Shown here piece by piece: positions 23,694 to 45,959 of a DNA stretch of 64,000 bases. The notes under the pieces were generated by a model. That model saw only the letters and a program-made list of their open reading frames with translations, made no database searches and was not told where the DNA came from. Origin of the DNA: Dehalococcoidia bacterium (GTDB lineage: Bacteria > Chloroflexota > Dehalococcoidia > Plut-88900); the NCBI GenBank assembly GCA_965197645.1, contig OZ240219.1, positions 1,888,001-1,952,000 of the forward strand. Direction: 5' to 3'. The stretch's first letter is position 1, and every line of letters starts with the position of its first letter. A program made the translations under genes and the position numbers.

Positions 23694-23957
23694 GGTTTGA
23701 CCCTCACACCGGTATCAGGACTGACTCATTCCCCAGCGTTTCGACTAAAGCTACCACCTAGGTTGGAACTCCTGCAAGTAGAGGTCTGGCGACCGCCCTG
23801 TCTACTACGTTCATTCCGGCGAGCATCCGACATCGTTGCGCTGAATGTTCAATTCCTGTGTGGGGCCAATGATAAATGAGCAGATCACGAACCCTCAAAC
23901 TCCACAGTGTCCCTCGCACTCGTTGCCGAACCCGTCGGCCTGTCCGTCTGCTTCCAA

Positions 23958-24731
23958 CTAGCTCTCGTCATATACGACCGCTTCGTCCAGGGGCCTCCGC
24001 AGCATGTGCAGATAGGGAGTCTTCTGCAGGGCCAGTCCGCCCCGCAACCTGGCGTCGATCTCGACGGCCTCGGCAAAGAGCTCGGGCCACCTGCGCTTGG
24101 TCTCCACCCACCTTGCGCGTGACTGGAAGGGGCAGGCGGCGCAGGCCGAGCGTTCAAGGGGCCTGTCGTACCGGGCCGTCCACCAGTCGGCGAAGTCCCT
24201 CCGGGACATGCCCGCGTCGATGAGCGGGTAGCGGTTCGTTATCCACCGGTCGCGCTAGGTCTTCATGCGGATGGCCTCGTCGGTGGATATGCTCAACCAT
24301 ATCTCGACAGTGGTTCCGGCGGGGACGCGCTGCTTCGGTTTCAGTCCCAGCATATCCCGTATCCTGCGGCGTATGGGCTTGACCTTGTAGTTCTCGGTGC
24401 ACTGCCGCTTGCCGATACCATCTGCCTCGCCATCGCCTCCCTTCAGATAGACTGGGATGTCCACGTAGTTGCGGTGACCCGAGTGGCTGGTGAGGGTCTT
24501 CACGTCCTCGCGGAGGCTGCGCCCGTTGTCCACGACGTACAGGGGGAATCCCAGCCGGTCCCCGAGCCACTCGACGTGCTCGTAGACGCTGGGCGGCTCC
24601 CAATGGGTATCGGCGAAGATGGCGCAGTCCGGCACCCGGCCGAACGCGCCCTCTCGGGCCATGAGGGCCATGACGGAGGACTGGACGCCTCCGCCCAGGC
24701 TGAGCACGGTGAGGGTGGGAGGTGCGTTCAT
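23958..24731 (-). pseudogene. PAPS-reductase/PP-loop family protein interrupted by an in-frame TAG
   Basis: LSLGGGVQSS, FADTHWE, RQCTENYK, MKT*RDRW, YPLIDAGM and RSACAACPF; the two ORF pieces are in the same frame. Confidence 0.75.
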
Positions 24732-28908: not shown

Positions 28909-29754
28909 ATGCCCATCCCTGAGCGGACACGGTCACGGTGGAGCCATCATCGTGCAGCGACGGCCTTCACGCAGGCGCACGTGCCCATCCGGAAGGCGAT
29001 GGATGAGCACAAGGGGCTGTCGCAGTTCAATTTTGAGGTCTTCCTCCAAGGGTCGTACAAGAACGACACCAATCTCGGTGGGGACAGCGATGTCGACGTG
29101 GTCATGCGGTTGGCCTCGAAGCTCAAACCCCGCATGGCCGTCCCAACAGGGAAGCAGTTAAAGAAAGACGTTTCCCACAAGGTGGCACACCAAAGATGGA
29201 AGTCATTCCATGACGAAGCGTTGAAGGCGATGAGGGCCGCGTATGGTAAGGATGCGAGCAGCGGCCGCAAGACCATCAAGGTCGCGAAGGGCAAGATACA
29301 GGCCGACGCCGACCTCGTGGTGACGCTGAGCTACAGGGAGGGCATAGCATTCTACCTCTCAGACGAGGGACGCTGGGTGGTGAGCTATCCGCAGCAGCAC
29401 CATCAGCGAGGGTCGAAGAAGGAGAAGACCACCGGCGGGCGGTTCAAGAGGGCGGTCCGGATGTTTAAGGCGGCCCGCAACAGGCTGATCGAGAAGAAGG
29501 TTCTCACCAAGGACGACGCGCCCTCCTATTTCATCGAGTGCCTGTTGTATAACGTTCCCGACAGGCTGTTCAAACCGAAGCTGGCGCCGACCTTTACGGG
29601 CATCATCGGCTGGCTGAAGACAGCTGAGCTCGATGGTTTCCAGTGCCAGAACAGGAAGGTGGCGTTGTGCGGGCCTGGAAAGGAGCAGTGGTCGGTGAAG
29701 AAGACGCGGGCGTTCGTCAGGGCGCTGCAGGGTCTGTGGGAGGCGGGGGGGTGA
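28909..29754 (+). CDS. cGAS/DncV-like nucleotidyltransferase (CD-NTase, CdnE-like)
   Basis: FLQGSYKNDTNLGGDSDVDVV, ADLVV, SYPQQH, FKRAVRMFK and APSYFIECLLYNVPD. Confidence 0.88.
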   Translation: MPIPERTRSRWSHHRAATAFTQAHVPIRKAMDEHKGLSQFNFEVFLQGSYKNDTNLGGDSDVDVVMRLASKLKPRMAVPTGKQLKKDVSHKVAHQRWKSFHDEALKAMRAAYGKDASSGRKTIKVAKGKIQADADLVVTLSYREGIAFYLSDEGRWVVSYPQQHHQRGSKKEKTTGGRFKRAVRMFKAARNRLIEKKVLTKDDAPSYFIECLLYNVPDRLFKPKLAPTFTGIIGWLKTAELDGFQCQNRKVALCGPGKEQWSVKKTRAFVRALQGLWEAGG

Positions 29755-29840
29755 GAATGGAAGTCTCCTACGGGCGACCATGGCGTGATAGCGGTTGGGC
29801 TGCTTATCCCAACTGAAGACACCCTTAGGAACGAGAATCC

Positions 29841-30842
29841 ATGAGCAATATAGGTCGAGAACACATCATCGAGGTTCCGGGACTACCGGCTGAATTGCAG
29901 GCCACCGCTAAGGAGGACATCGGCAGGTTACTGGGCGCAATCGCGGGAGTGGCCGACAGACAGGGGAAGCAATTCCTGTTGGACAGGGTCCGTCTCTCCG
30001 ACCGCTTTGAAGATGACGTGAACCGGTTCCTCGATGACCGTTCAGGTCTTAAGGGGTATGTCGCTGCCCGGCGCAATGCCCACGCGATTGGCAAGACCAT
30101 TTGGACTCGCTCCCAGCAAGGGAACAACCGTTTTGTGGTGATTATCGATGCGAGTCAGATCGGCCCGTGGGCGATCACCAATGCTCGGTGCCTGACTACC
30201 GTCCTGCACGAGCTCGTCCATGTGCTCCGAGAAGAGCGTCATCTGGAGCGGCTGGGGGAACAAGAGTACACCGCGGACAGAGACACTAGGGAGCGGTGGC
30301 TGGACGGTTGGGCCAGCTTGCTTCTCGATGAATTCGATGTGGACCGACTGGTGGACGTCATAGTTAACGGGCTAGCTACGAAGGATGACGGACAACCCTG
30401 GTCCTTGCGAGAGCTCGATGAGGCTCAGGGACTGGATTGGGTTCACGGGTTGCTGAATACTCTCGATCGCTTGCCACAGTTCGTAGACGAAGAGGTCTGG
30501 AAGTTTCGGACTTGGGAAATGGGGATCGACGACCTTGCCCTGTCGGTGATTCCTTATATCAAGGACGTACTTAGGTTGCTGAGCCACACCGCTGCGAGGT
30601 ACATGGGAACTGATCGTTGGCCAGACATCGTTGAGCGAATCAAGGAGACGGACGCCTCTCAGCGGTTCCTGAGGGAACACCTTGATACCGTCCTTGCCCA
30701 TCTCGATGATGCGCAGTTGCCCCTGGAGGAGTCCATTCGAATCGTTGGTCAAGCAGTGGAGGGGATGTTCCAGAACTGCGGATTTGGGTTTCGGACAATC
30801 CCCCGGGGTGTGTACATCTCAGTCGGGGAGCCGTCGGGTTAG
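29841..30842 (+). CDS. Hypothetical protein with HExxH zinc-metallopeptidase-like motif
   Basis: TTVLHELVHVLRE ... LLDEFDVDR. Confidence 0.6.
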   Translation: MSNIGREHIIEVPGLPAELQATAKEDIGRLLGAIAGVADRQGKQFLLDRVRLSDRFEDDVNRFLDDRSGLKGYVAARRNAHAIGKTIWTRSQQGNNRFVVIIDASQIGPWAITNARCLTTVLHELVHVLREERHLERLGEQEYTADRDTRERWLDGWASLLLDEFDVDRLVDVIVNGLATKDDGQPWSLRELDEAQGLDWVHGLLNTLDRLPQFVDEEVWKFRTWEMGIDDLALSVIPYIKDVLRLLSHTAARYMGTDRWPDIVERIKETDASQRFLREHLDTVLAHLDDAQLPLEESIRIVGQAVEGMFQNCGFGFRTIPRGVYISVGEPSG

Positions 30843-31153: not shown

Positions 31154-31732
31154 CTAACGTCGGGAGCGTCTATTATTCAACAGGGCTTGGTGCTGTTTCG
31201 CCACACCGGTAACTTCCAATCTGTACTTGGCCATTCTCTCGCTAACTCCGCACTTACTGGCGATGTCGTTCGCGCTCGATCCCCGGCGGACTTCTGCCAC
31301 TAGTAGTGCGCGGGGTAGGAGGAGGCAACCGGAGAGCCACGCCGCCTCGTCTTCCTGGGTCGCGTCACCCGACAGGAAGGTGACATCGCCAATTCGCTCT
31401 ACTCGGCTCAACTCGTGATCGAGGAGAGCGTGCGCGAGTTCGTGCGCAATATCACTCCTCCGGCGTGTCGCTCCCGAGCGGGGATTGTAGACTACGACCG
31501 TGCGATCGGGCGAAGGTCGGAGAGTGCATGCCGAGAAGGAATCGGGCTGAATGTCGTCGAGATAGTTGAACCGCTCTCGCGGGATCAGCTCGTCGCCTGC
31601 CCGGACCTCTATACCCAACAATTCCGCGAGAACTTCGGGCGCAACGGATTGGGTGGCGCCCATTCCTAACTCCGTTCGCACATCCCTCGCGATTCTCTCA
31701 GCCTCGGACTTAAACCCTCTCCGCAGAGCCAT
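31154..31732 (-). CDS. ImmA/IrrE metallopeptidase (CapP-like)
   Basis: RRGFKSEAE, RRRSDIAHELAHALLDH and QEDEAAWLSGCLLLPR. Confidence 0.88.
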   Translation of the reverse strand: MALRRGFKSEAERIARDVRTELGMGATQSVAPEVLAELLGIEVRAGDELIPRERFNYLDDIQPDSFSACTLRPSPDRTVVVYNPRSGATRRRSDIAHELAHALLDHELSRVERIGDVTFLSGDATQEDEAAWLSGCLLLPRALLVAEVRRGSSANDIASKCGVSERMAKYRLEVTGVAKQHQALLNNRRSRR

Positions 31733-32189
31733 CGGCGGATTCCTCCAGGAGCGCTTGATTCAGGTCGTTCAGCAACGCGCTCAGCGCACGAGCGGCTTCA
31801 GGGCGAAAGGTCTTCGCAGCCCGCAGATGCACGGCGGCAACATCCCCAGGCCGAACCAGGGCTTGATAGAGGTCGCCGACAATGTCTGCGATTCGTTCTG
31901 CGGCTTCCGGAGGGAGGTTTCGGTCTGCACGAAGGTGCTCAGCGATCACGTCGGTCGTAGCGGTCGCCCTCTCTTGGTTCTCGAAGAACTGCTTGATATC
32001 GGCGCCACACCATTCTACGAGCCGTTTGAACTTCGGTAGGTCCGGAACATGTCCTTTCTCAACGCGCGCCAGCGTATTGAAGGGGATACCTGTATCGAGT
32101 GCAGCTTCCCGGAGGCTCATCCCCCTGCGGGTTCGCTCGGCCAAGACAAGACCACCTAGGTCGCTGAGATCAAGCTTGCCTGCACTCAT
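31710..32189 (-). CDS. XRE HTH repressor (CapH-like)
   Basis: RRGMSLREAALDTGIPFNTLARVEKGHVPD; HLRADRNL and a similar second HLRAAKTF C-terminal motif. Confidence 0.85.
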   Translation of the reverse strand: MSAGKLDLSDLGGLVLAERTRRGMSLREAALDTGIPFNTLARVEKGHVPDLPKFKRLVEWCGADIKQFFENQERATATTDVIAEHLRADRNLPPEAAERIADIVGDLYQALVRPGDVAAVHLRAAKTFRPEAARALSALLNDLNQALLEESADGSAERV

Positions 32190-32232
32190 CGCGCCTCCTG
32201 TGCGCAAAATGGTACACTGTGCCACTGAAGGC

Positions 32233-32306
32233 TTGACATGGGGTCGACCATCTCGTACCCTGTATTTTGTTATACCGCAGTTGGTACTGTCAACATCTTG
32301 TAGTAC
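32233..32306 (+). promoter_or_regulatory. Sigma70 promoter and candidate operator for the ubiquitin-like operon
   Basis: TTGACA-17-TACCCT (32233-32261); imperfect inverted repeat GTACTGTCAA...TTGTAGTAC (32284-32306). Confidence 0.55.
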
Positions 32307-32323
32307 AGCGGAAGAAGCAAACG

Positions 32324-32572
32324 ATGAACGGTCACATTGAGATCTACGTTAGCGGGCGAGAGTACAAAGTCCCGGACAACCTCGTGACCTATGACCAAAT
32401 CGTCAAGATTTGGAACGAGCTGCACGAGCCGGAGAACAAACACATCATAGGCACTCCCGGCATCGACTACGAGGACGACCTGAAGGGTGAGGACGGTGTC
32501 CTCCTGCCGGGTAAGGACGTCCAAGTCACAGATGGCACCAGTTTCACGGTGGACCCGGAGCATGTCTCCTAA
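32324..32572 (+). CDS. Ubiquitin-like (multi-ubiquitin domain) protein
   Basis: IEIYVSGREYKV...VTYDQIVKI...IDY...GVLLPGKDVQVTDGTSFTV matches the beta-grasp Multi_ubiq pattern; ends EHVS. Confidence 0.75.
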   Translation: MNGHIEIYVSGREYKVPDNLVTYDQIVKIWNELHEPENKHIIGTPGIDYEDDLKGEDGVLLPGKDVQVTDGTSFTVDPEHVS

Positions 32573-33749
32573 AGACCGCCTCACCGCGTTCGGTGAGGCG
32601 GTCTTGTTTGACGTCAGCCTCGATACCGACGTGGTTCGGGCCGTGAAAGTTCCTTGTCTCCTGGCAGATGGGGTCGTTGGCACCTGCACCATTGAGAAAT
32701 CTTGCGACCCCGACAGCGGCAAGCCGACCGAGCAGATAGGTGGTGCTGTCCATGCCGTACGCATAGTGCCAGACGAGGCGAAGGATGGCTGCGTGTACAA
32801 CGCAGATGGGACACTGATCGGGAGCCGGATAGACGGTGACGGCGAAACCTGGTCGAACATTTCCATCCACAAGGGAAGTCAAAGCAGACCGGAGAAGGAC
32901 GAGTCGGCGAGAGACGTTGTTCACCGCTATGCCAAGCAGATCGTTGGGGCAGCATCGGCCGCAGGGCATGTTGCCCCCGCTTCACCCGCTATACCTGACC
33001 CATTCAAGATTCCCAACACGTTCGAGGCACGTGCGGGGATAATTCCGGTTCAGGACCGCATCCGCAGTCAGAATATTGTGATCATCGGCCTAGGCGGGAC
33101 GGGCTCCTACGTTCTCGATCTCATTGCCAAGACGCCCGTGCGGGGAATCCACGTCTTGGATGACGACTACATGGATTGGCATAACTTTATGCGGGCCCCC
33201 GGCGCGCCTACCGACGACGTGATTGAGTTACGTCGGAAGGGGAGTTTGCTGAAAGTGGACTACTACCGTCCAATATACGAACCCCTGCGGGAAGGCATCC
33301 AGCTGCACGAGATCCGTGTCGACAGCAAGTCCACGTTCAACGAGTTTCTGTCGGATCATCCCATCGACTTTGCCTTCGTGTGTATTGACCAGCTGACCGA
33401 AGGCGATTCACCGCGGCAGGATGTGGTCTACTGCGCCTTGTCCGAGGCAAGGGTGCCGTTCATAGACTCGGGCGTGAGCATAACGGTGGAGGACAGCGCT
33501 ATAGCCGGCGCCGTGACTACGAGCTTCTATGAGGCAGGCTCTGTTGCATGGAAAGGCCCCATACCGAATTCGAAGGTCGAGGGCGATGTCCCCGGCTATC
33601 GAAACGTCCAGCTGCCGGAAGTGAACGCCTTGGCGGCATCTCTCGCCGTGATGGAGTGGCGCCGCCGCACGGAGCAGTTTATTTCCAAAGACGCCTCGTT
33701 TCTCCATAAGTTCCGCCTCGAAACACCCCGCATGGTCAGAGCAGACTAA
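32562..33749 (+). CDS. DUF6791-like N-terminal domain + ThiF/E1 adenylyltransferase
   Basis: IVIIGLGGTGSYVLDLIAKTPV, HNFMRAPGA, DFAFVCID, PFIDSG and YRNVQLPEVNALAASLAV. Confidence 0.85.
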   Translation: MSPKDRLTAFGEAVLFDVSLDTDVVRAVKVPCLLADGVVGTCTIEKSCDPDSGKPTEQIGGAVHAVRIVPDEAKDGCVYNADGTLIGSRIDGDGETWSNISIHKGSQSRPEKDESARDVVHRYAKQIVGAASAAGHVAPASPAIPDPFKIPNTFEARAGIIPVQDRIRSQNIVIIGLGGTGSYVLDLIAKTPVRGIHVLDDDYMDWHNFMRAPGAPTDDVIELRRKGSLLKVDYYRPIYEPLREGIQLHEIRVDSKSTFNEFLSDHPIDFAFVCIDQLTEGDSPRQDVVYCALSEARVPFIDSGVSITVEDSAIAGAVTTSFYEAGSVAWKGPIPNSKVEGDVPGYRNVQLPEVNALAASLAVMEWRRRTEQFISKDASFLHKFRLETPRMVRAD

Positions 33750-33758
33750 CTCGTAGGA

Positions 33759-34184
33759 GTGGGTGGCGTGAAACTACGTCCCATCTTTGTAGAGGTGATG
33801 CCCGGGTTCGAAGCAATCAAAGACGGCGAGCTTTGGATCAGCCACAAGCATAGAACTATTAACCTGCGCTGTCCGTGTGGTTGCGGCGAGTTGACGGTCC
33901 TGACTCTTCATCCCAGTCGATGGCACGTTTGTTTCGACGGGAAGGCGGTCTCCCTTGAGGGTCCAACGGGCGGGTCAGTGTGGGCCAATTCCGGCTGCGG
34001 CAGCCACTATGCTATACGAAGCAACGCCGTGGTCTGGCTGGGCAGGATCGATCCAAGTCGTCATTTGGAGTACGCGGAGGACGAGCGGTCACGCATGCTT
34101 GGCTCCACGTCGAGCCATCAGAGTCTTCGTTCCTGGCTGGCGCGCGTCTGGCGTGGCCTTCGGTTCGGGACGTGGCGCAAGTGA
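33759..34184 (+). CDS. DUF6527 family protein
   Basis: FVEVMP, GELWIS, CPCGCGE, FDGKAVSL and CGSHYAIRSNAVVW. Confidence 0.82.
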   Translation: MGGVKLRPIFVEVMPGFEAIKDGELWISHKHRTINLRCPCGCGELTVLTLHPSRWHVCFDGKAVSLEGPTGGSVWANSGCGSHYAIRSNAVVWLGRIDPSRHLEYAEDERSRMLGSTSSHQSLRSWLARVWRGLRFGTWRK

Positions 34185-34350
34185 AGGCCCGTATGCTGCC
34201 ATGGCGAGGAGAGAACGATGGGACGGCCAATACTGGGAAAGAGTGAAGGTGGCATCACGCTGATTGCATCCATTCTTATTCCGGACCGGAGAGGACTCGC
34301 CAGATTGAGAAGCCCAGCGTGAATGTCCACATCTCAGGAGGTAGGGGCAG

Positions 34351-35418
34351 ATGCCATCGCAACAACACGAACAGTGGAAGCTAGACCTCTTCGACCACCT
34401 GGACCGCAAGCTGAGCGCATGCATCTCATGCGAGTTCGGGGAGAGCAGGGACAGTTACACGCCCAGGCATCGAGGGCGGCTCCGCGAGCCTTCCCAACAG
34501 ATCCTGTGGGCATGCGAACGGATGCACCCTCACAGCTACGACCTGCTGAGGGGCGCCGGATACGTAGTACTGGAACAGAATCAGTCCTCGCCGGTAAATG
34601 GGACGAGCTGCCGGCCGGACATCACTATCCTGAACACTCATCGCCAGCCTCTGGCATTCATAGAGATCGTTCGCTCCAACCGCCCTACTAACTCTCTTCG
34701 AGTGGCGGAAGAGCTGGGCATTCCGTTGTTCACGATTCTCGCCCCTCACAGGCAGTCCCTTGTTCCCGGGCTCGGGCCGTCTCGTCCCTGGTGGGACTTT
34801 GACCCCAGCCTGCCGGCGGACGCCAAGCAGCAGATGTACTTCATGGAACAGGTGGCAGACGAGTTGATGCGCCGGAGCGGCGATGGCGACTCGACGTGGG
34901 CCGACCTGGACATGATGCTGGATGACGACGGGAACTTGGTCTTCGCGAGCTTCCGCGGCTCTCCGCCCGACTTGGCGGGCCCCACGTTTCCGAGGACGGG
35001 CGACCTGATTGTCGCGGAGCTGTGCTCTTGGGACTGCGACAAGGCGATGGAAGTGCTTGGGCGCGAGCAGCTCATGGACCAACAAAGCGCCATTGTATCC
35101 GTGCGAGAGACTCTGGAGCAGGACCTGGGGAGGATCCTGCTGGGAGCCATTCGAGGTGCGAGGGACGGGACCAGCCGGTTCGTCGTCCCGGTCGGGTCTG
35201 AGGAGGTTCACGTTGAGATGAGCCTGAAGCCTCTCAACCCACACGTGAGCGCTAACGACCCCGTAGTCCTCAACCTGATGGCCCAAGTCGCCAAGGCAGC
35301 CGACAAGGTTCGCACCCGCCATAGGCCAAAAACTGCCGCCTTCGTCGCGAACGAGTGTGAGATGACAACACTGACGGAGATGAGTGGCCCACAAGCCGAG
35401 GGCCGAGTCGAGATCTGA
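34351..35418 (+). CDS. Hypothetical protein with PD-(D/E)xK-like motif
   Basis: VVLEQ...RPDITILN...LAFIEIVRSN. Confidence 0.55.
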   Translation: MPSQQHEQWKLDLFDHLDRKLSACISCEFGESRDSYTPRHRGRLREPSQQILWACERMHPHSYDLLRGAGYVVLEQNQSSPVNGTSCRPDITILNTHRQPLAFIEIVRSNRPTNSLRVAEELGIPLFTILAPHRQSLVPGLGPSRPWWDFDPSLPADAKQQMYFMEQVADELMRRSGDGDSTWADLDMMLDDDGNLVFASFRGSPPDLAGPTFPRTGDLIVAELCSWDCDKAMEVLGREQLMDQQSAIVSVRETLEQDLGRILLGAIRGARDGTSRFVVPVGSEEVHVEMSLKPLNPHVSANDPVVLNLMAQVAKAADKVRTRHRPKTAAFVANECEMTTLTEMSGPQAEGRVEI

Positions 35419-36268
35419 GAAAAGACGGCGGAGGACACGGGTGGCAACAACTAGGATTGACTTTGAACGAATCAGGAGGGAGTGGTCTTTCCATTGGCAC
35501 CGCTTTGACCGGTTCATACGTTGTTGGCTTAGTAGACTCTTCTTCTTCGTAACAGTTTGCTGTGTGGCCGTTACCACGCTCATTTGGCATTTTGCTCTAT
35601 TTGATGACCTGCAGGTCCGTATCTTCATGAGCGTAGTGATTGTCCTGGTGCCAATGTTCGAATTCCAGCCCCCACCTAGAACGTGGGCATCGCGAGAGGA
35701 GCTGCTTTGGATCTCGTCGTTTCTTGCGCTAACTATGCTGATCGTGGCGAGCGATAAGTTCGACTGGACTGGGGTTGGGATCCAGGCTGTCCTATTGCTA
35801 GTGGCACTTCCTTACGGGTGGGTGGTCTGGAAGCTGGTGCGCCGCAATTGGCTGTTGGTAACCGGATTGATACTGGCACTGGCTGCCATGATGGTTTACT
35901 GGGTGGCGGCGTTGGTCGGCGAGCAAGATTCCCCAGATTTGCTGCTATTGCCTCTCTTGGTGGTGCTTTTCTTTAGGGTTGCCTGGACACCGGTGGCGTG
36001 GCGGGCATTGGACCTTGCCCAACGATGGAAGAACCGTAGAGTCGGCGGTCCTGGTATGCGTGCAGTTGCCATGGCCGTCCTATTCTTACCCGTAATCCTG
36101 GTTGCGATGGCCGTACCCGGCATGGTCGGTCTCAGTATAACCTGGTCGGCCGTATCCCTGATGCTCGTAGGCTTTCTGCTGAGCACGGTGATCTCCGAAC
36201 CATTGAGACGTTTTCTGCTGGAATGGGGAAACCTAATGCCAGATGGGGAAACGGTCTCTAAAGTGTAG
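35384..36268 (+). CDS. Multi-pass membrane protein
   Basis: About 8 hydrophobic segments; no family recognised. Confidence 0.6.
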   Translation: MAHKPRAESRSEKRRRRTRVATTRIDFERIRREWSFHWHRFDRFIRCWLSRLFFFVTVCCVAVTTLIWHFALFDDLQVRIFMSVVIVLVPMFEFQPPPRTWASREELLWISSFLALTMLIVASDKFDWTGVGIQAVLLLVALPYGWVVWKLVRRNWLLVTGLILALAAMMVYWVAALVGEQDSPDLLLLPLLVVLFFRVAWTPVAWRALDLAQRWKNRRVGGPGMRAVAMAVLFLPVILVAMAVPGMVGLSITWSAVSLMLVGFLLSTVISEPLRRFLLEWGNLMPDGETVSKV

Positions 36269-36316
36269 TACGGAAGCTCGGAAGGCTTTCAAGCATTCAA
36301 TCTAGGCAGGCTATTC

Positions 36317-36694
36317 ATGAAGAGAAACATGGACTTGATCCGACAAATCTTACTGGCAATAGAAGGCGAACCATCAACCCAGCATGAGTTCAAAATGGCG
36401 GGCATAAACGATCTAGAGTTGTGGTACAACGTTGATTTGCTAGTACAGGCCAATCTCATTAGAGGCGTAGAAGTTCGCTGGGCAGCCGATGGTGCGGGGC
36501 CATACGCACATTCCAAAGGGCTAGTTGCCCTGACTTGGGACGGCCACGAATTCTTGGAGGCAATTCGAAATGAATCAGTTTGGCGAAAGGCCAATCAGAA
36601 GGCGAATGCCAGTGGCCTAGACTTACAGAGCTTGACGATTGAGGTGATCAAATCACTTTGCGTATCGACTGCTAAACAAATTCTGGGGGTGTAG
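36317..36694 (+). CDS. DUF2513 domain protein
   Basis: MKRNMDLIRQILLAIE ... LTWDGHEFLEAIRNESVW. Confidence 0.85.
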   Translation: MKRNMDLIRQILLAIEGEPSTQHEFKMAGINDLELWYNVDLLVQANLIRGVEVRWAADGAGPYAHSKGLVALTWDGHEFLEAIRNESVWRKANQKANASGLDLQSLTIEVIKSLCVSTAKQILGV

Positions 36695-36790
36695 GTGCTG
36701 GTTGACGGCTGCACCATCGCTTACACTGCACTGTGGGCTAACTGTGGTGCCATAGCGACTCCCCAACACCGCAAGCAACTTAGGACAAGA

Positions 36791-37672
36791 ATGGTCATAG
36801 ACTCCCAGAATCCTTACGCTCAGCGCTGTAACGAATCGGATATGGTCACAAATGCGTGCCGCATCGCCGAGGACGATGGTCTTCGCTCCCAACACATGAG
36901 ACGGCTAATCCAAGGCATGATCCCGACAGCATCTCATCCTCATGCAGCCACAATCCCGAAGGTTGTCATTCAATTCTGGCACGATTCCAACAACATACCT
37001 TCGGACGTCCAAGAGTGCCTCGACAGCTGGAAACGACTAGACAGTCAAGGTTTCAAGCGAATTCTCTTTGACGACTGCAATGCGAGACGGTTCATATCCA
37101 AGAGCTTCGGTCATAACCACGTTGCGGCTTTCGACCGTTGTCCCCACCCGGCGATGCGATGTGATTATTTTCGCCTATGCTACATACTGAAGAACGGTGG
37201 CTTCTACGTGGACGCCGACGAGTTTTACCAAGGAGGAGACTACGACTTTCTGTTTCTAGACGATCGACTAAAGATCCAACCTCTGTGCTATGACGTCGCA
37301 TCTGCGACAATGGTTCCCTACGACGTATTCACAAGAGAACATGGTGGCGCTCCTAGTTGGATCTTCTACGTAAACAACAACCCACTTGTGGCACCAGCCT
37401 CTCACCCCGTTGTTCGTTTGGCCCTGCGACGCTCGACTGGAATTCTCTTGAACGATGAAAGCAAACGACTCGACATACAATCAACGACTGGGCCAGGAAA
37501 CTTAACCGCCAGTTTGGTTAGACACGCAGTTATCTCCGAGCTGGAGAGTCAGGATCGCGACTTTTCCTTCATTGCAAACTGGGAAGCCATCTCCATCAGC
37601 CGTTGGCCTCTAAGCTATCGAAGTGATGACCGGAATTGGAGGCTATGGAATCATGCCCAACCGCTTATCTAG
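36791..37672 (+). CDS. GT32-like (DxD) glycosyltransferase
   Basis: IPKVVIQFW, CDYFRLCYILKNGGFYVDAD and TTGPGNLT. Confidence 0.82.
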   Translation: MVIDSQNPYAQRCNESDMVTNACRIAEDDGLRSQHMRRLIQGMIPTASHPHAATIPKVVIQFWHDSNNIPSDVQECLDSWKRLDSQGFKRILFDDCNARRFISKSFGHNHVAAFDRCPHPAMRCDYFRLCYILKNGGFYVDADEFYQGGDYDFLFLDDRLKIQPLCYDVASATMVPYDVFTREHGGAPSWIFYVNNNPLVAPASHPVVRLALRRSTGILLNDESKRLDIQSTTGPGNLTASLVRHAVISELESQDRDFSFIANWEAISISRWPLSYRSDDRNWRLWNHAQPLI

Positions 37673-37774
37673 AAGTGCATGGCGACCCCTGCAGCCTCAT
37701 ACTACGCCCGTAGCCGCTATCAACCTGCATCTTTCCTACTGGCACCTCGCCAGGAAAAGTGACTTGTACTTCTG

Positions 37775-39994
37775 ATGAATACCAAGAGACGAGCTAGTTT
37801 CCTTCCGCGTATGTGGTTTTGGGCCAAGCTGGGTGCGAGATGCCTAGAAAGCAAAACAACCTCTGGGTCATTTGGCAGGGAGGGCTCACACGATCCGGTT
37901 CAGCGAATATACGTAATCAATCTGGACCGACAGCCTGATCGCTGGCGGCGGACGAGTCGGGAGCTCAGCAGGCTACGCGACCGGTCCGGAAGGCCTTTAG
38001 CCAGGTTGAGCAGGCGCTTTTCTGCTGTGGATGCAAGGTACATTCCCGACGTAACGGGTAGAGACCTAGTTCAATCCAGTTATCAATTGTCCGACCAACT
38101 CTTCGTTCAGCCGGAGCCACGGTTGGACGAAATTGCAGATGCACAAGCCCGCGATATCGAAATGTCGCCGCAGGAAGTAGCAGTCGCGCTCTCGCACATC
38201 GAGGTTTGGAACCTGATAGCCTTGGGTCAGCCCCGCTATACACTTGTGCTGGAGGATGACATCTATTTCCCAAGGGGATTTGCTAACGTCTTTGATAAAA
38301 TTTGGAAAGAGCTTACTCATCGGAATGGGCAGGGCGCCGTTGCCGACCTCGTTTATCTGTCGTATGAGAAGGCTGTAAAGCAAGTGCCGGGAAGTCCTTT
38401 CTCTGGGCTATTGTTCAGACCATCGACTGGTCTTTGGCAACTGTCTGGTTACATACTGTCTAAGGAGGGCGCGCAGAAACTCCTCCGGCTACTACCCGTT
38501 CGAGGACCCGTGGATCTCTGGCTTAATCATCAGTTCAGAAAACTCGACGTGTTCGCGACACGGCGTCCGATAATAGTGCAGAGACCAGATGTACCTTCCA
38601 CAAATTCCTACTCTGTTCTACCGATTCTCTCTCAGGTCGGGGTGATCACCCGCGAAAAGCCGCTCCTCGTCAAAAGTAAGTCAATGCCCGGACCTGTCTT
38701 TGCTTTCGGCAAGGGTGGTTCGGGCTTAGCTTCTCTTGCAATGGCACTATCAATCTTGGGCTACAGGTGCTGCAGCGACGTTACGGCATTGCCCGCAGCT
38801 GAACACGCTGACCTGTTTGGGAAAAAGCGCGGGCGAGTGTTTGACGCCTACGTGAATATTGGCGCACTGGATTCTCAGTCGTTGACCGAACTGGCGAAGA
38901 TCTATCCCAAGGCGCGATTCATTTCGACAGTAAACGATGATGCGCCGCTGAATAGTTCAGCTAGGGAGTCTCATATCGGAGGTACTGTAGATCCTGTAGC
39001 TAACGGATACGCAACTGACAGCATCTTGACGCAACTATCATTAGAGATATCCAACAGGCTCCTAATACTGCCTACCCAACACCGTGACAAATGGGAGTTG
39101 CTTAGTGGTTTCCTAGGATGCGAGTATCCTGCGCATCCTTATCCCGATTGCGAAGACCAAGTGCAACGTCCACTTGTGGTGGGAGCGGATGAGAATCACA
39201 ATGGCTGGAGACCTCGGGTAAGACATCTCCAGAGAGATTCTTCTCCGTGGATTGTCCCTAGAAGAGACTGGCGCGGTCTGCCGCTCGCCGAGACTGGGGA
39301 GGCACAACGGTTGGATCGCCACAGTGTTGGCTTTTCTGATGAGTTCAGAGAATCGGATAGTGGAACCTGGATGCTACGCGATGACACCTTCCCAAGCAAC
39401 CTTGCGCTATTCACGCCAGACAACTTCGCGATTAACACAAACGGCGTTGGACAGCTCACGCTGCGTGAGGAGAATGTGTCTGTAAGACAATTCACATCCG
39501 CATCAATTGCTAGTCGGCAGCGGTATCTTTACGGGCGATTCGTAGCGGATCTGAGGCCATCAAAGGTGCCGGGTGTGATTACGGGAATGTTCTTGCACCG
39601 CAATGCGCCTCGTCAGGAAATCGACCTTGAGTTCTTGGGCAAGGATACGACGAGCTTGCTTGTAAATGTGTACTACAACCCCGGAGTCGAGGGGACGAAG
39701 CTGGAATACGGCTACCGAGGCGCTCCGACCCTCATCGATCTGGGGTTCGACGCCGCGTCGGAATTTCATCAATATGAAGTTGAATGGTGTTCAGACTTTA
39801 TCCAATGGCGTGTCGACGGACGGCTTGTATACAAGCGAGATATTTGGGACCCGACGCCCATCCCCCATTTGCCGATGCAGTTCAACGTAAATCTGTGGCC
39901 CTCCAGGTCCAAGAGGCTAGCTGGAAGGTTGGCTACTGGCGACCTGCCCACGCAGAGTTGCATCAGGAACATTGGTGTACAGTCACTGTCCTGA
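37775..39994 (+). CDS. Three-domain fusion: GT25 glycosyltransferase, sulfotransferase-like domain, GH16 glycoside hydrolase
   Basis: IYVINLDRQPDRW, RFSAVD, LVLEDD and GPVDLWL (GT25); FAFGKGGSGLASLAMALSILGY...WELLSGFLG (sulfotransferase-like); QEIDLEFLG and FHQYEVEW (GH16). Confidence 0.8.
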   Translation: MNTKRRASFLPRMWFWAKLGARCLESKTTSGSFGREGSHDPVQRIYVINLDRQPDRWRRTSRELSRLRDRSGRPLARLSRRFSAVDARYIPDVTGRDLVQSSYQLSDQLFVQPEPRLDEIADAQARDIEMSPQEVAVALSHIEVWNLIALGQPRYTLVLEDDIYFPRGFANVFDKIWKELTHRNGQGAVADLVYLSYEKAVKQVPGSPFSGLLFRPSTGLWQLSGYILSKEGAQKLLRLLPVRGPVDLWLNHQFRKLDVFATRRPIIVQRPDVPSTNSYSVLPILSQVGVITREKPLLVKSKSMPGPVFAFGKGGSGLASLAMALSILGYRCCSDVTALPAAEHADLFGKKRGRVFDAYVNIGALDSQSLTELAKIYPKARFISTVNDDAPLNSSARESHIGGTVDPVANGYATDSILTQLSLEISNRLLILPTQHRDKWELLSGFLGCEYPAHPYPDCEDQVQRPLVVGADENHNGWRPRVRHLQRDSSPWIVPRRDWRGLPLAETGEAQRLDRHSVGFSDEFRESDSGTWMLRDDTFPSNLALFTPDNFAINTNGVGQLTLREENVSVRQFTSASIASRQRYLYGRFVADLRPSKVPGVITGMFLHRNAPRQEIDLEFLGKDTTSLLVNVYYNPGVEGTKLEYGYRGAPTLIDLGFDAASEFHQYEVEWCSDFIQWRVDGRLVYKRDIWDPTPIPHLPMQFNVNLWPSRSKRLAGRLATGDLPTQSCIRNIGVQSLS

Positions 39995-40808
39995 ACCGAC
40001 TCTGTTTCACACGCGGCTGGCTGCGTTAGCAGCACAGAATCGAGAACTACCTCACCGTCCGCTAGTTGAATTCCTTTGGGCGCTTCCTGTGCAAAAGGCC
40101 ATGGCTTCCAGCGGCCCGCGTAGAATCTAGGCACTGCGAACAGGTGGCCTTGCCTGAACTAGGGGCGGCCCCAATCGGAGGAGTGCTGATCTAGGAGAAT
40201 CTGTTTGTGCAATGACGAAGAGCTCCGGCGCTGGGGCATGTCCGATGTAGCCTAGACAATGCGGCTCGATCTCTCGGTTAGCATAGCGGTGCTTGCGATC
40301 AGAGACCCCCGAGCCAAAGCTCGAAGACGGTTCTGTCTATCGTCAAAATAGGCCCACCACCGCTTACGGTAGATACCACTATCTTCGAGATGTGGCTAGG
40401 CAGCCTGTCGGCGCAATTTGAAGGGGAGATTCCAGTTGAGCCGACTCCACCGAAAGTTCCTCGACGATTACTTGGCAAACCTTTGATCAAAGCCCGCCGC
40501 TGCCTCTCGAGTGATTCCCTCTAACTTAGGGTTACTCTCTAGTAGCACTGTTGCGCCTTATCCCGCTCGGCGCCTGCTCTAGGTTGCCTCCTTGCAGTTG
40601 GCTAGATAAGTTCTTTCTGTAGTCTGCTTTATGTGGCCGCCTGACTCTGTCCTTCAATTGCGACGCATCAGGTAGGTCACAGGCTCTTGAGGTTCTGCTC
40701 CTAGACACACGCACACATGCCGGGATCTGCTGGCGAGCTTTGAGCTAGTTCATGGACGAACAGAAGAGGGTAATGTCGAGACATCAGTGAATCGCTTACC
40801 TCTGAGTC

Positions 40809-41732: not shown

Positions 41733-42368
41733 CCTTTGGCCTGCTACTGGATTCTTCCTCTGGGAAAAGATAACACAATCTGTCGGCTGGTCCCGCGATT
41801 TCTAACATCATTCCCCTTGGTTGGTTAATGGAAGGTTGGAGACACGCTGCCTCCTTGGAGGAGTATACTCGTCTCGACTGATTACTGGCATCACTGAACC
41901 TGTGAAACCACCTAGAGCACGAGCCTCGCGACCGGCATATGGAACCTTGCCAGTCAGGTCAGATGAAAAGCGGGCATTGATCACGCCTATGGGCGGTTCT
42001 GGGCTGACCATGGATACACCGGTCGGCCGATAAAATGCCAGGAATTATCTGGCGTTCGAATAGTCAATAGGTCGGTCAGCGTTGTGATAGCTGCTAGCGG
42101 AAGCGTCTAGATTGTGGTGCATCCGAGTTTCCAGGTGCGGTGAGTTGATACAGCCTTGCAGTAGTCGGCACTTCTTCGAAATTCACCGTCCTACTAACGA
42201 GAGCCCTTCCGATGAATTGGTCAAAGATAAAGTCGTCGCTGCCTGCTCATTCTTCATTAAGAAGTAGACAGGCTTCAATAATGGGAACCGTCAACTACGT
42301 TCAGCCATTCACTCACCCCTCGACTCCGTCTGCCCGAGAGCGCGATAATGCAACCTGTGACGTCACTC

Positions 42369-45300
42369 ATGGAGAATCGCTTTTTTGAACAACCCGTACT
42401 TAACTCTCCCTACGAGTACCCGGCCAAGCACTGGGAGCTCGATGATCAGGGTCAGCCGACCCAACAGGTCATTGAGAACCGGCGCGGTGCAGAATTCATC
42501 ACGCCAATCCCAAAGCCGAGGAAACGCAGGGCAGCGAAGAGTCAGCAGCAGTTTGTCTTCGACGAGGGCAAGGGACTGTCCACCGAGGAACAGCAGTACG
42601 ACGTCACTGCTTTGGTGAACGAAATCCGCCGCCACGTGGACCAGTGGCGCACTTTGCCTAATCCAAACCAATGGGGCGTCGCCCCTGCAACTGCCCGGCT
42701 GCTTCGGCATTGGAGACACCATCAGTTCAGCGACATCCAGCCCTTCTTCTGCCAGGTTGAGGCAGTCGAGACGGTCATCTGGCTCACTGAGGTTGCGCCC
42801 AAGCTCGGACAGGTCGGAAGGCGTCTCCTAGACCGCCTCGCCAACGCCAATAACGACGCCAACCCCGAGCTGTCGCGTCTGGCCTTGAAGCTCGCCACGG
42901 GTGCTGGCAAGACCACGGTCATGGCTATGACCATCGCATGGCAGACCATCAACGCCGTCCGGCACCCCAACAGCAGGCGCTTTACGCGAGGCTTCCTGGT
43001 CGTGGCTCCGGGCATCCCCATCAAAGACAGGCTGCGCGTACTTCAGCCCAATGATCCGGACAGCTACTACGCCAGTCGAGAACTGGTGCCTAGGGACATG
43101 CTCGGGGACCTCAATCACGCAAGTATCGTTATCACGAATTACCACGCGCTCAGGCTACGCGATCGCACGGAGCTTTCCAGTGGCGGCCGTGCCCTTCTGC
43201 AAGGCAGAGGGTCCGATCTGAATACTATGGAGACCGAGGGGCAGATGCTCCAGCGCGTCATGCCCGGTCTCATGGGTATGAAGGACATCTGGGTGCTGAA
43301 TGACGAGGGGCACCACTGCTACCGGCACAAGCCGGGGGAGAACGCCGAGGAAGACCTGAAGGGTGACGACAGGAAAGAGGCGGAGAAGAACGACGAGGCT
43401 GCCCGCGTCTGGATTTCCGGCTTGGAAATCGTCAAGCGTAAGCTAGGCGTCAGGCAGGTCTTGGACCTCTCGGCCACACCCTTTTTCCTGCGAGGCTCCG
43501 GCTATGCCGAGGGTACGCTGTTCCCCTGGACGGTTAGCGACTTCTCGCTTATGGACGCCATAGAGAGCGGAATCGTCAAACTGCCCCGCGTGCCGGTGGC
43601 TGACAACATCCCGGGCGGAGACATGCCAAAGTACCGGGCTCTATGGGAGAACATCCGGGGCGACATGCCCAAGCGGGGACGCGGCAAAGCAAAGGGAGAC
43701 CTCGACCCGCTCAGCCTGCCAACAATGCTCAAGAGTGCTCTTGATGCTCTCTACGGGCACTATGAGAAGACCTACAATGAATGGAGGAAGGAGGGAATCC
43801 CCGTCCCGCCATGCTTCATAGTGGTCTGCAACAATACGTCCACGTCAAAACTAGTCTACGACTATATCTCTGGATTCCACCGTGAGAACAACGACGGCTC
43901 CAAGACATTGGAACGGGGGCGCCTTGCCCGGTTCGATAACTTCGACGACAACGGCAACCCGTACGCCATTCCCCGCACAGTACTGATCGACAGCGAGCAG
44001 TTGGACTCCGGCGACACGCTGGACAGGGAGTTTCGCAGCGCGGCTACGGAAGAGATAGAGCGCTTTCGCAGAGAGCGGGTCGACCGCACCCGCGATGCCC
44101 GCGATGCGGAGAACATCACCGACCACGACCTTCTCAGAGAGGTGATGAACACCGTCGGCAAGGAGGACCGCCTAGGTCAGTCCATCCGGTGCGTCGTGTC
44201 GGTGTCCATGCTTACCGAAGGCTGGGACGCCAGCACTGTCACGCACGTTCTCGGTGTGCGAGCCTTCGGGACACAGCTCCTGTGCGAGCAAGTGGTTGGG
44301 CGGGCTCTGCGTAGACAGTCCTACAAGCTGAATGATCAAGGTCTGTTCGACGTGGAGTACGCCGACGTGCTCGGAGTGCCCTTCGATTTCACCGCGAAAC
44401 CCGTCGTTGTGAAGCCTGCGCCGCCTCGCCAGACGGTCCAGGTCAAGGCGGTCCGGCCTGACCGTGACCACCTCGAAATCCAGTTCCCCAGGGTATCGGG
44501 CTACCGCACCGACCCGCCTAGAGAAGAGCTCTCGGCCAAGTTTGGCGACGACTCCTATCTGGTGCTGACGCCGGAGCTTGTCGGTCCTTCGAGGACCAGA
44601 AACGAAGGCATCATTGGCGAAGGCGTCGATCTCAACCTGGAGCACACCAGCGACATGCGGCCCTCCAGCTTGCCGTTTCACCTCACGCGGCGGTTGCTTT
44701 ACACGAAGTGGCGCGATTCCAACGAAGACCCAAAGCTGCACCTTTTCGGCAGCTTGAAACGGATCGTAAGGCAATGGTTGGACTGCTACTTGGTCTGCAA
44801 GGGCGGGACCCATCCCGCTCAACTCATGTACCAGGAGCTGGAGGACAGAGCTTGTGAGATCATCACCGCCGGCATCACCACCAGCCACGCGGACGAGTAT
44901 CCCGTCAAGGCGCTGCTCGACCCCTTCAACACGACCGGCTCGACTGCGCATGTGAACTTCACAACGTCCAAGACGAGCCGATGGGAGACGGACGCCCGCA
45001 AGTGCCACGTGAACTGGGTCGTCCTCGATAGCGACTGGGAGGCGGAGTTCTGCCGCGTGGCCGAGGCTCATCCCAAGGTGAGGGCCTACGTCAAGAATCA
45101 CAACCTGGGCTTGGAGGTGCCGTATCGTTCAGGCTCCGAATCACGCATCTACATTCCAGACTTCATCGTCCAGGTGGACGACGGGCATGGCCAGGACGAC
45201 CCTCTCAACCTGATCGTGGAGATCAAGGGGTACCGCGACGAGGACGCCAAGGCCAAGAAACTCACCATCGAATCCTACTGGGTCCCCGGCGTGAACAACC

Positions 45301-45521
45301 TTCGGCAGTACGGACGCTGGGCCTTCGCCGAGTTCACCGACGTTTTCGATATAGAAGAGGGGTTCGACAAGCTGGTGCAGAGGGCCGCGAGAGAATCAGG
45401 AATCCCTGACTACAGCGCTATGACCGCTAAAGAATTGCTCGCGTCCTGCCCGATCGATGATGAATATCTCGTCCGACCTCCCGAGTTTCCGAGAGACATA
45501 GACTTTGGCGTATCTCCTTGA
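42369..45521 (+). CDS. res: Type III restriction enzyme Res subunit (BPTD_3080-like) with an extra C-terminal tail
   Basis: FFCQVEAVET, KLATGAGKT, NDEGHHCY, LSATP, SMLTEGWD, QVVGRALRR and YIPDFIV...VEIKG. Confidence 0.9.
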   Translation: MENRFFEQPVLNSPYEYPAKHWELDDQGQPTQQVIENRRGAEFITPIPKPRKRRAAKSQQQFVFDEGKGLSTEEQQYDVTALVNEIRRHVDQWRTLPNPNQWGVAPATARLLRHWRHHQFSDIQPFFCQVEAVETVIWLTEVAPKLGQVGRRLLDRLANANNDANPELSRLALKLATGAGKTTVMAMTIAWQTINAVRHPNSRRFTRGFLVVAPGIPIKDRLRVLQPNDPDSYYASRELVPRDMLGDLNHASIVITNYHALRLRDRTELSSGGRALLQGRGSDLNTMETEGQMLQRVMPGLMGMKDIWVLNDEGHHCYRHKPGENAEEDLKGDDRKEAEKNDEAARVWISGLEIVKRKLGVRQVLDLSATPFFLRGSGYAEGTLFPWTVSDFSLMDAIESGIVKLPRVPVADNIPGGDMPKYRALWENIRGDMPKRGRGKAKGDLDPLSLPTMLKSALDALYGHYEKTYNEWRKEGIPVPPCFIVVCNNTSTSKLVYDYISGFHRENNDGSKTLERGRLARFDNFDDNGNPYAIPRTVLIDSEQLDSGDTLDREFRSAATEEIERFRRERVDRTRDARDAENITDHDLLREVMNTVGKEDRLGQSIRCVVSVSMLTEGWDASTVTHVLGVRAFGTQLLCEQVVGRALRRQSYKLNDQGLFDVEYADVLGVPFDFTAKPVVVKPAPPRQTVQVKAVRPDRDHLEIQFPRVSGYRTDPPREELSAKFGDDSYLVLTPELVGPSRTRNEGIIGEGVDLNLEHTSDMRPSSLPFHLTRRLLYTKWRDSNEDPKLHLFGSLKRIVRQWLDCYLVCKGGTHPAQLMYQELEDRACEIITAGITTSHADEYPVKALLDPFNTTGSTAHVNFTTSKTSRWETDARKCHVNWVVLDSDWEAEFCRVAEAHPKVRAYVKNHNLGLEVPYRSGSESRIYIPDFIVQVDDGHGQDDPLNLIVEIKGYRDEDAKAKKLTIESYWVPGVNNLRQYGRWAFAEFTDVFDIEEGFDKLVQRAARESGIPDYSAMTAKELLASCPIDDEYLVRPPEFPRDIDFGVSP

Positions 45522-45920
45522 TACCAACGTCATCTCGGAGCTCCGCAAGGGCGACCGTTGTGACGCCAACGTCAGTGGTTGGTACGCTGAAGTGGAGGAA
45601 ACCGACATATACCTCAGCGTACTGGTACTTGGAGAGATGCGTAGAGGCATTGAGCAGATACGGAGGCGAGATCCACAGCAGGCCGTCGTTCTGGAACGCT
45701 GGCATGAAGCGACTGCTCAAAGCTTCGCCGGTCACATACTGGCCATAGATGAAACGATTACGGAAGCCTGGGGTCGGGTGTCCGCCGTTCGCCCGATCCC
45801 TGTGGTCGACGGACTGCTGGCCGCCACCGCCTGGTCCACGATTTTACCCTGGTGACTCGTAATGTTTCGGATGTTGAAGGCCTAGGTGCACGAGTGCTCG
45901 ACCCCTTCAGTCGACGATAG
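45505..45920 (+). pseudogene. vapC: VapC/PIN toxin with a 1-nt frameshift near 45830
   Basis: YLLDTNVISELRK, SVLVLGEMRRGIE and DGLLAATA, then in a shifted frame VHDFTLVTRNVSDVEGLGARVLDPF. Confidence 0.85.
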
Positions 45921-45959
45921 CTTTCACGAGATGGTCCTGTAGAGAGGATTGCAACTCCG

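Follow-up and report, generated by a model that had tools for sequence, protein, structure and literature searches.

Does a bacterial ubiquitin-like conjugation operon that is followed on the same strand by glycosyltransferase (GT) and glycosidase genes encode one defence system, or do several modules of separate origin lie side by side? We addressed this question for positions 31154 to 39994 of a 64,000-nucleotide (nt) stretch of Dehalococcoidia DNA (the window), a segment that holds a divergent regulator pair, a Type II Bub operon, three further genes, and two sugar-enzyme genes, one for a GT32-type glycosyltransferase and one for a GT25/P-loop sulfotransferase-like/GH16 glycosidase fusion. 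An earlier note on this DNA had proposed that the sugar-transfer genes form the output arm of the ubiquitin-like pathway and that the whole is an undescribed combined system. Bub is a recently described bacterial ubiquitin-like pathway, for which a fixed partner module would strongly hint at function; according to the available text of a 2026 paper (PMC13373217), phage protection by it had yet to be shown.

With a probability of about 0.82, this 8.8-kb stretch is a set of independently acquired modules in a low-GC defence island, not one system. We propose four of them: Module 1, a Type II Bub operon together with its CapH/CapP regulators (31.12 to 34.19 kb); Module 2, an orphan nuclease-fold gene (ORF6; ORF, open reading frame); Module 3, a membrane protein gene (ORF7) with a DUF2513 gene; and Module 4, the GT32 plus GT25-P-loop-GH16 cassette. 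The genes 3' of bubE are neighbours, not Bub parts, and by the present analysis the sugar-enzyme genes are not Bub's partner module. Family evidence came from ORF calls and from Pfam (E <= 0.01), PADLOC, NCBIfam, and PHROG scans of the ten proteins encoded at 31154-39994, and all ten genes that the note had listed are present there.

The unit shared among Bub loci stops at bubE

We surveyed 43 related Bub loci from several phyla and scored their neighbours by tblastn (E <= 1e-5) within 10 kb. When the window was compared by blastn with five of these loci (L001, L024, L011, L020, and L009), homology was confined to ~31.12-34.24 kb at 72-81% identity, the shared DNA being bounded by the stop codons of capP and bubE. 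Locus L002 shares the Bub genes, then breaks, and then resumes with ORF6 at 87%. Clustering of the ORFs of the 43 loci and the window returned BubBD, BubE, and BubA as recurrent families and, less often, the M78-peptidase/helix-turn-helix (HTH) proteins; the genes 3' of bubE differ in nearly every one of the 43. Homologues of the window's downstream genes are scarce among them (ORF6 in 1, ORF7 in 0, DUF2513 in 0, GT32 in 1, and GT25-GH16 in 1). The unit common to related loci thus stops at bubE. Of the 43, locus L024 alone bears the GT pair, 47-48% identical to the window's and located 4.4 kb past bubE, beyond three ORFs on the plus strand and two genes on the minus strand; one of the latter two encodes a ThsB-type TIR protein.

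A second Bub operon is present in the same genome, outside the window (G000:C1, ~2,999,800-3,008,940; L106), and the GT genes are absent beside it. Its proteins are 82% (CapH), 71% (CapP), 35% (BubBD), and 42% (BubE) identical to those of the window, and its BubBD is a canonical DUF6791+ThiF protein. Co-oriented 3' of this operon are genes for a 159-aa membrane protein, an ImuB-like protein, a DnaE2-like protein (split over three ORFs), and an SRAP peptidase. The ImuB/DnaE2/SRAP genes are a DNA-damage mutagenesis cassette, and their position beside Bub agrees with a stress-response reading of the pathway.

The sugar-enzyme pair is a cassette of its own

The first cassette gene encodes the GT32-type glycosyltransferase (36695-37672, plus strand; Pfam Gly_transf_sug, E 2.1e-5), and the second encodes the 739-aa GT25/P-loop sulfotransferase-like/GH16 protein (37775-39994, plus strand). 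Across 61 metagenome loci with full-length relatives of the three-domain protein (35-67% identity), a GT32 homologue lies directly 5' of GT25-GH16 in 53, and in the remaining 8 the contig ends within 231 nt; the GT32 protein of the window is 60% identical over 303 aa to the product of the gene 5' of GT25-GH16 in L045. Bub genes occur near the pair in one of the 61 (L078). There the pair lies upstream of a distant DUF6791-type Bub operon ~6 kb away, and the two are separated by an Xre-like gene and an M78-UvrD-PD-(D/E)xK fusion gene. A carbamoyltransferase gene follows the pair in 16 of the 61 metagenome loci and in L024, and the window copy belongs to a subclade that does without it.

The pair and Bub are also distributed separately in genomes and on plasmids. 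No GT25-GH16 homologue was found in 400 other genomes sampled from the phylum; 14 of these genomes carry DUF6527 above the cut-off, and none of the 14 has GT25-GH16. Nine plasmids carry the full-length fusion. In the two that we inspected, the fusion gene lies directly behind a glycosyltransferase gene and DUF6527 is found in neither. Likewise, among plasmids with a BubBD-like E1, none of the 60 records listed out of 117 is one of the 10 GT25-GH16 plasmids. As a cassette of two genes, the GT pair is autonomous and horizontally mobile, present in many phyla and on plasmids without Bub. On plasmid pKmfe267-2 (L107, IncFII; 5687-10948), the pair is bracketed by two same-orientation 603-nt tyrosine-recombinase (integrase) genes and looks like a recombinase-bounded cassette.

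Pfam divides the fusion protein into GT25 (E 1.3e-16), Sulfotransfer_4 (4.5e-6), and GH16 (PF00722, 5e-27) domains. The GH16 catalytic motif is of the ExDxxE type and lies in a beta-jelly-roll domain; here both it (EIDLEF) and the EDD (DXD-type) motif of GT25 are intact, and the GT32 protein has a DAD (DXD) motif. The closest solved structures to the GH16 domain are Bacillus lichenases (E 8.4e-21, residues 520-709), with transglycosylase-like matches as well, and the GT25 domain matches a PHROG 'moron' glucosyltransferase. A PDB sequence search with the GT32 protein returned no match, and neither a signal peptide nor a membrane segment is evident by eye in either cassette protein. Of the proteins scored, 1993 fall into the three-domain family at E <= 0.001, all with automatic names only, and 119 of the 120 homologues listed have the GT25+GH16 architecture. 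A literature search combining GT25, GH16, sulfotransferase, and defence island retrieved nothing, and we found no function reported for any cassette member. Most plausibly, the cassette acts alone to assemble or modify a glycan. Because the DXD-type and EIDLEF motifs are intact, and because of the lichenase, transglycosylase-like, and moron glucosyltransferase matches, our best guess is that the two enzymes make or remodel a beta-linked glycan or glycoconjugate in the cytoplasm.

Base composition of the island

GC content is ~68% at 24-29 kb and 54-64 kb of the window and 52-61% across ~29-53.5 kb, and this low-GC block is a defence island in a 68%-GC Chloroflexota genome. Within it, overall GC drops from ~0.61 to ~0.52 at ~35.3 kb and climbs again at ~42.4 kb. 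GC at third codon positions (GC3) is 0.67-0.72 for bubA, bubBD, and bubE, 0.76 for ORF6, 0.63 for ORF7, 0.53-0.56 for the DUF2513, GT32, GT25-GH16, and DUF6615 genes, and 0.76 for the restriction-modification (R-M) genes that follow. These shifts between blocks therefore fit at least three separate origins. A search for direct or inverted repeats flanking the inserted block gave chance-level matches only.

The eight co-oriented genes that the earlier note had remarked upon are real. Of the 22 candidate ORFs tabulated at 28.2-53.2 kb, however, only 4 are on the minus strand; three of these were accepted as genes (capP, capH, and the DUF6615 gene), and the fourth is the rejected ORF 34426-35628. 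Since nearly all ORFs of the island are on the plus strand, the co-orientation of eight genes is uninformative as to whether they form one operon.

Alternative readings

The reading furthest from ours makes the glycosyltransferase and glycosidase genes the effector arm of Bub, glycosylating proteins tagged with the ubiquitin-like protein (Ubl) or being tagged themselves, within one new defence system. It draws on the run of eight genes in one direction, closely spaced and without detected terminators, on the targets and function of Bub, which are unknown in the available text of PMC11601596 and PMC13373217, and on L024 and L078, which hold both elements within 10 kb. These two loci, together with several properties of the data, weigh against our modular reading. 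The GT pair lies within 10 kb of Bub in two loci besides the window, a co-occurrence that exceeds the naive genome-wide expectation, yet fits shared residence in defence islands. The neighbour survey took in close relatives, at 54-79% BubBD identity; most related loci come from metagenome-assembled genomes (MAGs), many of them kin, so that counts over them are not independent; and the 61 metagenome loci with the GT pair include near-duplicates. We found no intrinsic terminator or significant hairpin that would separate bubE from ORF6 or the later genes from one another, and the gaps between these co-oriented genes are short. A complete absence of the GT genes beside Bub elsewhere, which the earlier note had named among the findings that would overturn its reading, is not strictly the case given L024 and L078; the rate is no higher than that of the cassette's other defence neighbours. 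Against the effector arm, the two elements co-occur in only 1 of 43 Bub loci and 1 of 61 GT loci, and each time with genes in between: in L024 they are split by the minus-strand ThsB-TIR gene and another minus-strand gene, and in L078 the GT pair sits upstream of Bub, behind the M78-UvrD-nuclease gene. The homologous unit stops at bubE, composition differs between the blocks, and the cassette is self-contained on plasmids without Bub and absent from 14 of 14 other DUF6527-bearing genomes. The effector-arm reading is largely refuted by these distribution data, and we regard it as highly improbable; the combined system of the earlier note falls with it.

Two milder alternatives leave the modules biochemically separate. 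Under one of them, the CapH/CapP promoter reads through ORF6, ORF7, the DUF2513 gene, and the GT cassette, and DNA damage co-induces them all. No convincing plus-strand intrinsic terminator was found at 34.2-40.0 kb, the lone plus-strand hit lying inside the start of bubE; the five intergenic folds behave like shuffled sequence (z ~0) except at 37660-37780 (z -2.55); ORF6 and ORF7 overlap, and the DUF2513 and GT32 genes abut; and the second Bub operon likewise has co-oriented DNA-damage genes 3'. Ahead of ORF6, however, is a 167-nt gap that contains a separate AGGAGG ribosome site, and ahead of GT25-GH16 a structured gap of 103 nt. Short contigs from four other runs tile 35.17-39.7 kb at ~90-95% identity, with reach across the ORF6/ORF7, ORF7/DUF2513, and DUF2513/GT32 junctions; they say nothing on transcripts and are not independent support, because they probably come from close kin. 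The lack of terminator hits is itself weak evidence, since the terminator rules of this phylum are unknown. We consider read-through unlikely, and keep some weight on it because no convincing terminator was found. Under the other alternative, the cassette is an anti-phage or exclusion module, for example one that remodels a receptor glycan, and it is here since defence genes cluster. We tallied 145 ORFs within 3.5 kb of the cassette in 36 loci dereplicated by eye from the 61. Defence-type families among them include UvrD/GajB-like helicases (3), ResIII (2), HNH (2), SLFN_AlbA_2 (2), BrxL, DUF3375, AbiJ, and a DNA methylase; resolvases, IS110, and integrases are also present, and further neighbours of the cassette include a STAND NTPase, a Type I HsdR, and a PLD-SNF2 helicase. 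An Aliarcobacter plasmid has a Lit-family gene on one side of the cassette and a Shedu gene on the other, and the PHROG moron match of the GT25 domain points the same way. Housekeeping genes adjoin the cassette too, however, and the tally, made without a control set, is context and not enrichment. The cassette proteins have no match in PADLOC-DB v2, no relative was found in IMG/VR viral contigs with the GT25-GH16 query (nor with a BubBD query), and an export or membrane signal is not apparent in either protein. An exclusion role is thus doubtful. The two ideas can be combined, in that damage-controlled read-through would in this lineage co-induce Ubl tagging, the nuclease-fold protein, and a GT cassette that acts as an exclusion or defence module of its own and repeatedly lands beside Bub, Thoeris-like, Shedu, Lit, and R-M systems; this we hold to be more of a long shot. 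We therefore retain the modular reading and describe the modules in turn below.

The Bub module

According to the available text of Ye et al. 2024 (PMC11601596), Type II Bub comprises BubA (the Ubl), BubBD (an E2-E1 fusion), and BubE (a DUF6527 serine protease). Judged by sequence, capP, capH, bubA, bubBD, and bubE (31.12-34.19 kb) are a complete operon of this type with CapH/CapP, as the earlier note had recognized, and the conserved catalytic residues are intact. The bubA gene (32324-32572, plus strand; start most likely the ATG at 32324, after a purine-rich stretch) encodes an 82-aa ubiquitin-like protein with a single beta-grasp domain (Multi_ubiq, E 5.2e-7) that ends in ...VDPEHVS. A BubA homologue is present in 40 of the 43 related loci. 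All 39 intact homologues keep the C-terminal HVS (...PEHVS), a count that leaves out the remaining 4 of the 43 loci, at which the reading frames were not BubA. Two unrelated Type II BubA proteins, those of L078 and of the second Bub locus, also end in serine.

The bubBD gene (32562-33749, plus strand), whose ATG at 32562 overlaps the bubA stop by 11 nt, encodes a 395-aa protein in which a putative E2-like domain is fused to a ThiF-type E1 (ThiF, E 6.3e-12; NCBIfam PRK06153 family, E 1.4e-48). The crossover-loop Tyr346 is kept in 43 of 44 homologues, and Ser101 is invariant in 43 of 43, as are H64 and K125. For the DUF6791-ThiF label that the earlier note had given this protein, the ThiF half held and the DUF6791 half did not at the sequence level. 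Pfam did not detect DUF6791 in it at E <= 0.01, and BLAST gave no alignment of the N-terminal E2-like domain to a DUF6791 BubBD; a PDB sequence search with BubBD returned no match. An AlphaFold2 (AF2) model of the N-terminal 150 residues has a predicted local distance difference test (pLDDT) score of 83. Foldseek with this model found nothing at E <= 0.001; the best VIA-align match is Citrobacter BubB (9eae_C; Z 5.4, root-mean-square deviation 4.3 over 106 aligned residues), and those next in rank are mostly UEV, Atg10, and other E2 folds (Z 2.7-3.7). These matches weakly suggest an E2-like fold for the domain.

The bubE gene (33759-34184, plus strand) encodes a 141-aa DUF6527 serine protease (PF20137, E 1.4e-13). 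All 35 homologues keep Ser73, His83, and Cys80, and 32-34 of the 35 keep Cys38/40/42. This Ser-His dyad and cysteine spacing are those of Citrobacter BubE, for which S92/H102 and C57/59/61/99 are given in the available text of PMC11601596. Pfam found no JAB/JAMM peptidase among the ten proteins at 31154-39994.

From these conserved residues, and by analogy with characterized Bub systems, we infer every biochemical step of an ATP-dependent conjugation through oxyesters. BubBD would adenylate the C-terminus of the 82-aa BubA, which would be passed via oxyester intermediates on Tyr346 and then Ser101 to lysines of targets; BubE, through Ser73/His83, would remove the tag.

The BubBD clade of the window (54-79% identity) occurs in MAGs titled Chloroflexota, Acidobacteriota, Latescibacterota, Gemmatimonadota, Pseudomonadota, Binatia, and Acidimicrobiaceae. 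Three Bub operon copies (L005, L006, and L041) share one 5.8-Mb Candidatus Latescibacterota MAG contig; their BubBD is 72% identical to that of the window, and one copy has no intact bubA start in the frame read. A small hydrophobic protein of 159-196 aa (48-52% identical) is encoded directly 3' of bubE in five loci that span two Bub clades (L106:7470-7949, minus strand; L002:12658-13248; L011:11697-12215; L015:11697-12215; L020:11842-12327). It may be the product of an unrecognized Bub accessory gene, and it was not found in the operon of the window. ORF7 was considered as its homologue and rejected (BLASTP E 0.40 and 9.7; hhalign probability 0.06).

CapH, CapP, and the operator region

The capP gene (31154-31732, minus strand) encodes a 192-aa M78/ImmA-type Zn-metallopeptidase (Peptidase_M78, PF06114, E 1.2e-17; PADLOC capP, E 1.2e-9) with an HELAH (HExxH) motif; it is 59-78% identical in 10 related loci and more weakly related in 6 more, which makes 16 of 43 at E <= 1e-5. 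The capH gene (31710-32225, minus strand; 171-aa ORF, with the likely start at the ATG of residue 13) encodes an XRE-type HTH repressor (HTH_3, E 7e-6) whose match to the PADLOC capH profile is weak (E 0.0039).

The divergent promoter/operator region between capH and bubA (32190-32323, not assigned to a strand) contains a palindrome, GGTACAcTGTgCC, a TTGACA -35 box, and a second palindrome, aTACCgcagttGGTAC, as well as a minus-strand TTGACA/CAAAAT promoter-like site. In an alignment of nine capH-bubA intergenic regions, GGTACAnTGTACC, TTGACA, and GTACCn6GGTAC are kept in the window and five loci. The two palindromes flank TTGACA and have perfect copies at the second Bub locus of the genome. 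An inverted-repeat tool run on the operator region at seed 6 returned no pairs, the palindromes being visible in the alignment only. The candidate operator of the earlier note gains from this conservation, and the two palindromes are good operator candidates, at which CapH may bind and from which induction may proceed.

In the available text of Ye et al. 2024 (PMC11601596), CapH+CapP adjoin 168 of 544 Bub operons, and, in that of PMC13373217, the CapH+CapP pairs of CBASS (cyclic oligonucleotide-based antiphage signalling system) and other defence operons are DNA-damage responsive. By analogy, CapH would repress the divergent promoter at the two GTACC/GGTAC palindromes, and DNA damage would activate CapP, leading to CapH cleavage.

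The intervening genes and the rest of the island

ORF6 (34351-35418, plus strand) is a separate mobile gene. Its 355-aa orphan product has conserved Cys/His clusters and a putative restriction-endonuclease-like core, and has no Pfam, NCBIfam, PHROG, or PADLOC match. Its family comprises 137 homologues, the best 120 of which are 55-90% identical and named only 'hypothetical'; the alignment retains invariant Cys/His clusters, P89-D90, and E105, with V107/R108 at the 'K' position. The AF2 model averages a pLDDT of 56.5 overall and reaches 77-86 at residues 71-130. In a VIA-align search of 48,161 chains, its top matches are restriction-endonuclease folds (Z 8.8-8.0, from this pLDDT-56.5 model), and its Atlas leads are CoiA-type nucleases with scores <0.9. 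The PD-(D/E)xK-like label that the earlier note had attached to this ORF thus finds an echo in the predicted fold of a low-confidence model (Z 8.8) and in nothing at the level of sequence families. The minus-strand ORF 34426-35628 (400 aa) was rejected in favour of ORF6: its GC3 is 0.62 versus 0.76, and its L002 homologue is 68% identical versus 85% for the ORF6 plus frame.

ORF7 (35384-36268, plus strand) encodes a protein of 294 aa that is Arg-rich at its N-terminus and contains several hydrophobic segments. It has no family match in Pfam, PADLOC, NCBIfam, or PHROG, no homologue in the 43 Bub or 61 GT loci, and weak Atlas leads to a 'hypothetical membrane protein' (score 0.82). The DUF2513 gene (36317-36694, plus strand; 125 aa, PF10711, E 2.4e-21) also matches phrog_585 (E 2.8e-19), whose category is function unknown, and was not found by Bub or the GT pair in those same loci.

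The first gene of the island encodes a CBASS-type oligonucleotide cyclase (28909-29754; PADLOC Cyclase, E 3.5e-76). Together with a 333-aa ORF without a family match, it lies upstream of the studied stretch and converges on capP, and the two (28909-30842) may be a minimal CBASS, one with an effector that matches no family. Downstream of the studied stretch are a minus-strand DUF6615 gene and then a Type III R-M pair (res, 42348-45521; mod, 45960-48845, PADLOC MTase_III, E 0); three ORFs without assignment and a NERD/UvrD-like helicase gene end the island. In L021, titled Longimicrobiales, Type III R-M follows the Bub genes 1.2 kb on, the distance in the window being 8.3 kb, and its R-M pair (12660-19026) is 61-64% identical in amino acids to that of the window (42348-48845). 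Because a related pair follows Bub in this locus, the Bub plus Type III R-M neighbourhood recurs across phyla. A flank of L011 matches 53.6-56.7 kb of the window, that is, the same chromosomal neighbourhood with other island content.

A short high-copy sequence lies 3' of GT25-GH16 at 40265-40415. The genome has five more partial copies of it, and contigs of other samples cover it very deeply. One of the genomic copies forms the 3' end of a small HTH-type gene, and for this reason the sequence is probably a mobile-element remnant at the module junction. A second low-GC block (21000-24000; ~50-53% GC) lies between a 60%-GC region and a 67-73% GC core, and contains two large minus-strand ORFs (21165-22133 and 22146-23693).

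Significance and comparison with known systems

Type II Bub with CapH/CapP is an already published class (Ye et al. 2024, PMC11601596). What this locus adds is a well-delimited 3.05-kb capP-capH-bubA-bubBD-bubE unit spread over several phyla, a Bub clade with a putative E2 domain that is missed by the Pfam model, conserved candidate operator palindromes that are directly testable, and one genome in which two Bub operons have similar regulators and common candidate operators. The GT32 + GT25-GH16 pair is, in turn, a widespread and unstudied cassette of defence islands and plasmids.

The cassette most closely resembles the pairs on Klebsiella michiganensis pKmfe267-2 and Aliarcobacter cryaerophilus pACRY43158, with which it shares the two-gene order, the GT25-...-GH16 fusion, and variable flanks rich in defence and recombinase genes; these plasmid fusions align with that of the window over 97-100% of length at 41-45% identity. 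Its GH16 domain matches the Bacillus 1,3-1,4-beta-glucanases (PDB 1GBG) in sequence and has EIDLEF. Unlike in the Bacillus lichenases, however, it is the C-terminal third of a protein, fused to GT25 and the P-loop domain, with no obvious export signal, and on these grounds a role as an external-glucan hydrolase is unlikely.

The regulators share with known CapH+CapP pairs the combination of an HTH repressor and an M78 Zn-peptidase, the divergent orientation relative to the controlled operon, and the palindromes over the promoter. They differ in that the CapP of the window is short (192 aa versus the 242-position PADLOC profile, of which it matches positions 39-149) and in the low score of CapH on its profile. 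The Bub genes themselves can be set against bubA-bubBD-bubE of Escherichia coli ZDHYS365, as described in the available text of PMC11601596. Both operons have the gene order Ubl, E2-E1 fusion (its E2 part putative in the window), and DUF6527 protease, lack a JAB peptidase, have a BubE with a Ser-His dyad and four cysteines, and lie in islands with defence genes. The crossover-loop Tyr (Y346 here, Y342 there) and the Ser of the E2 or putative E2 domain (S101 here, S106 there) are likewise common to both, whereas in the window the putative E2-like domain has diverged too far for Pfam DUF6791 and the Ubl is a short single-domain form.

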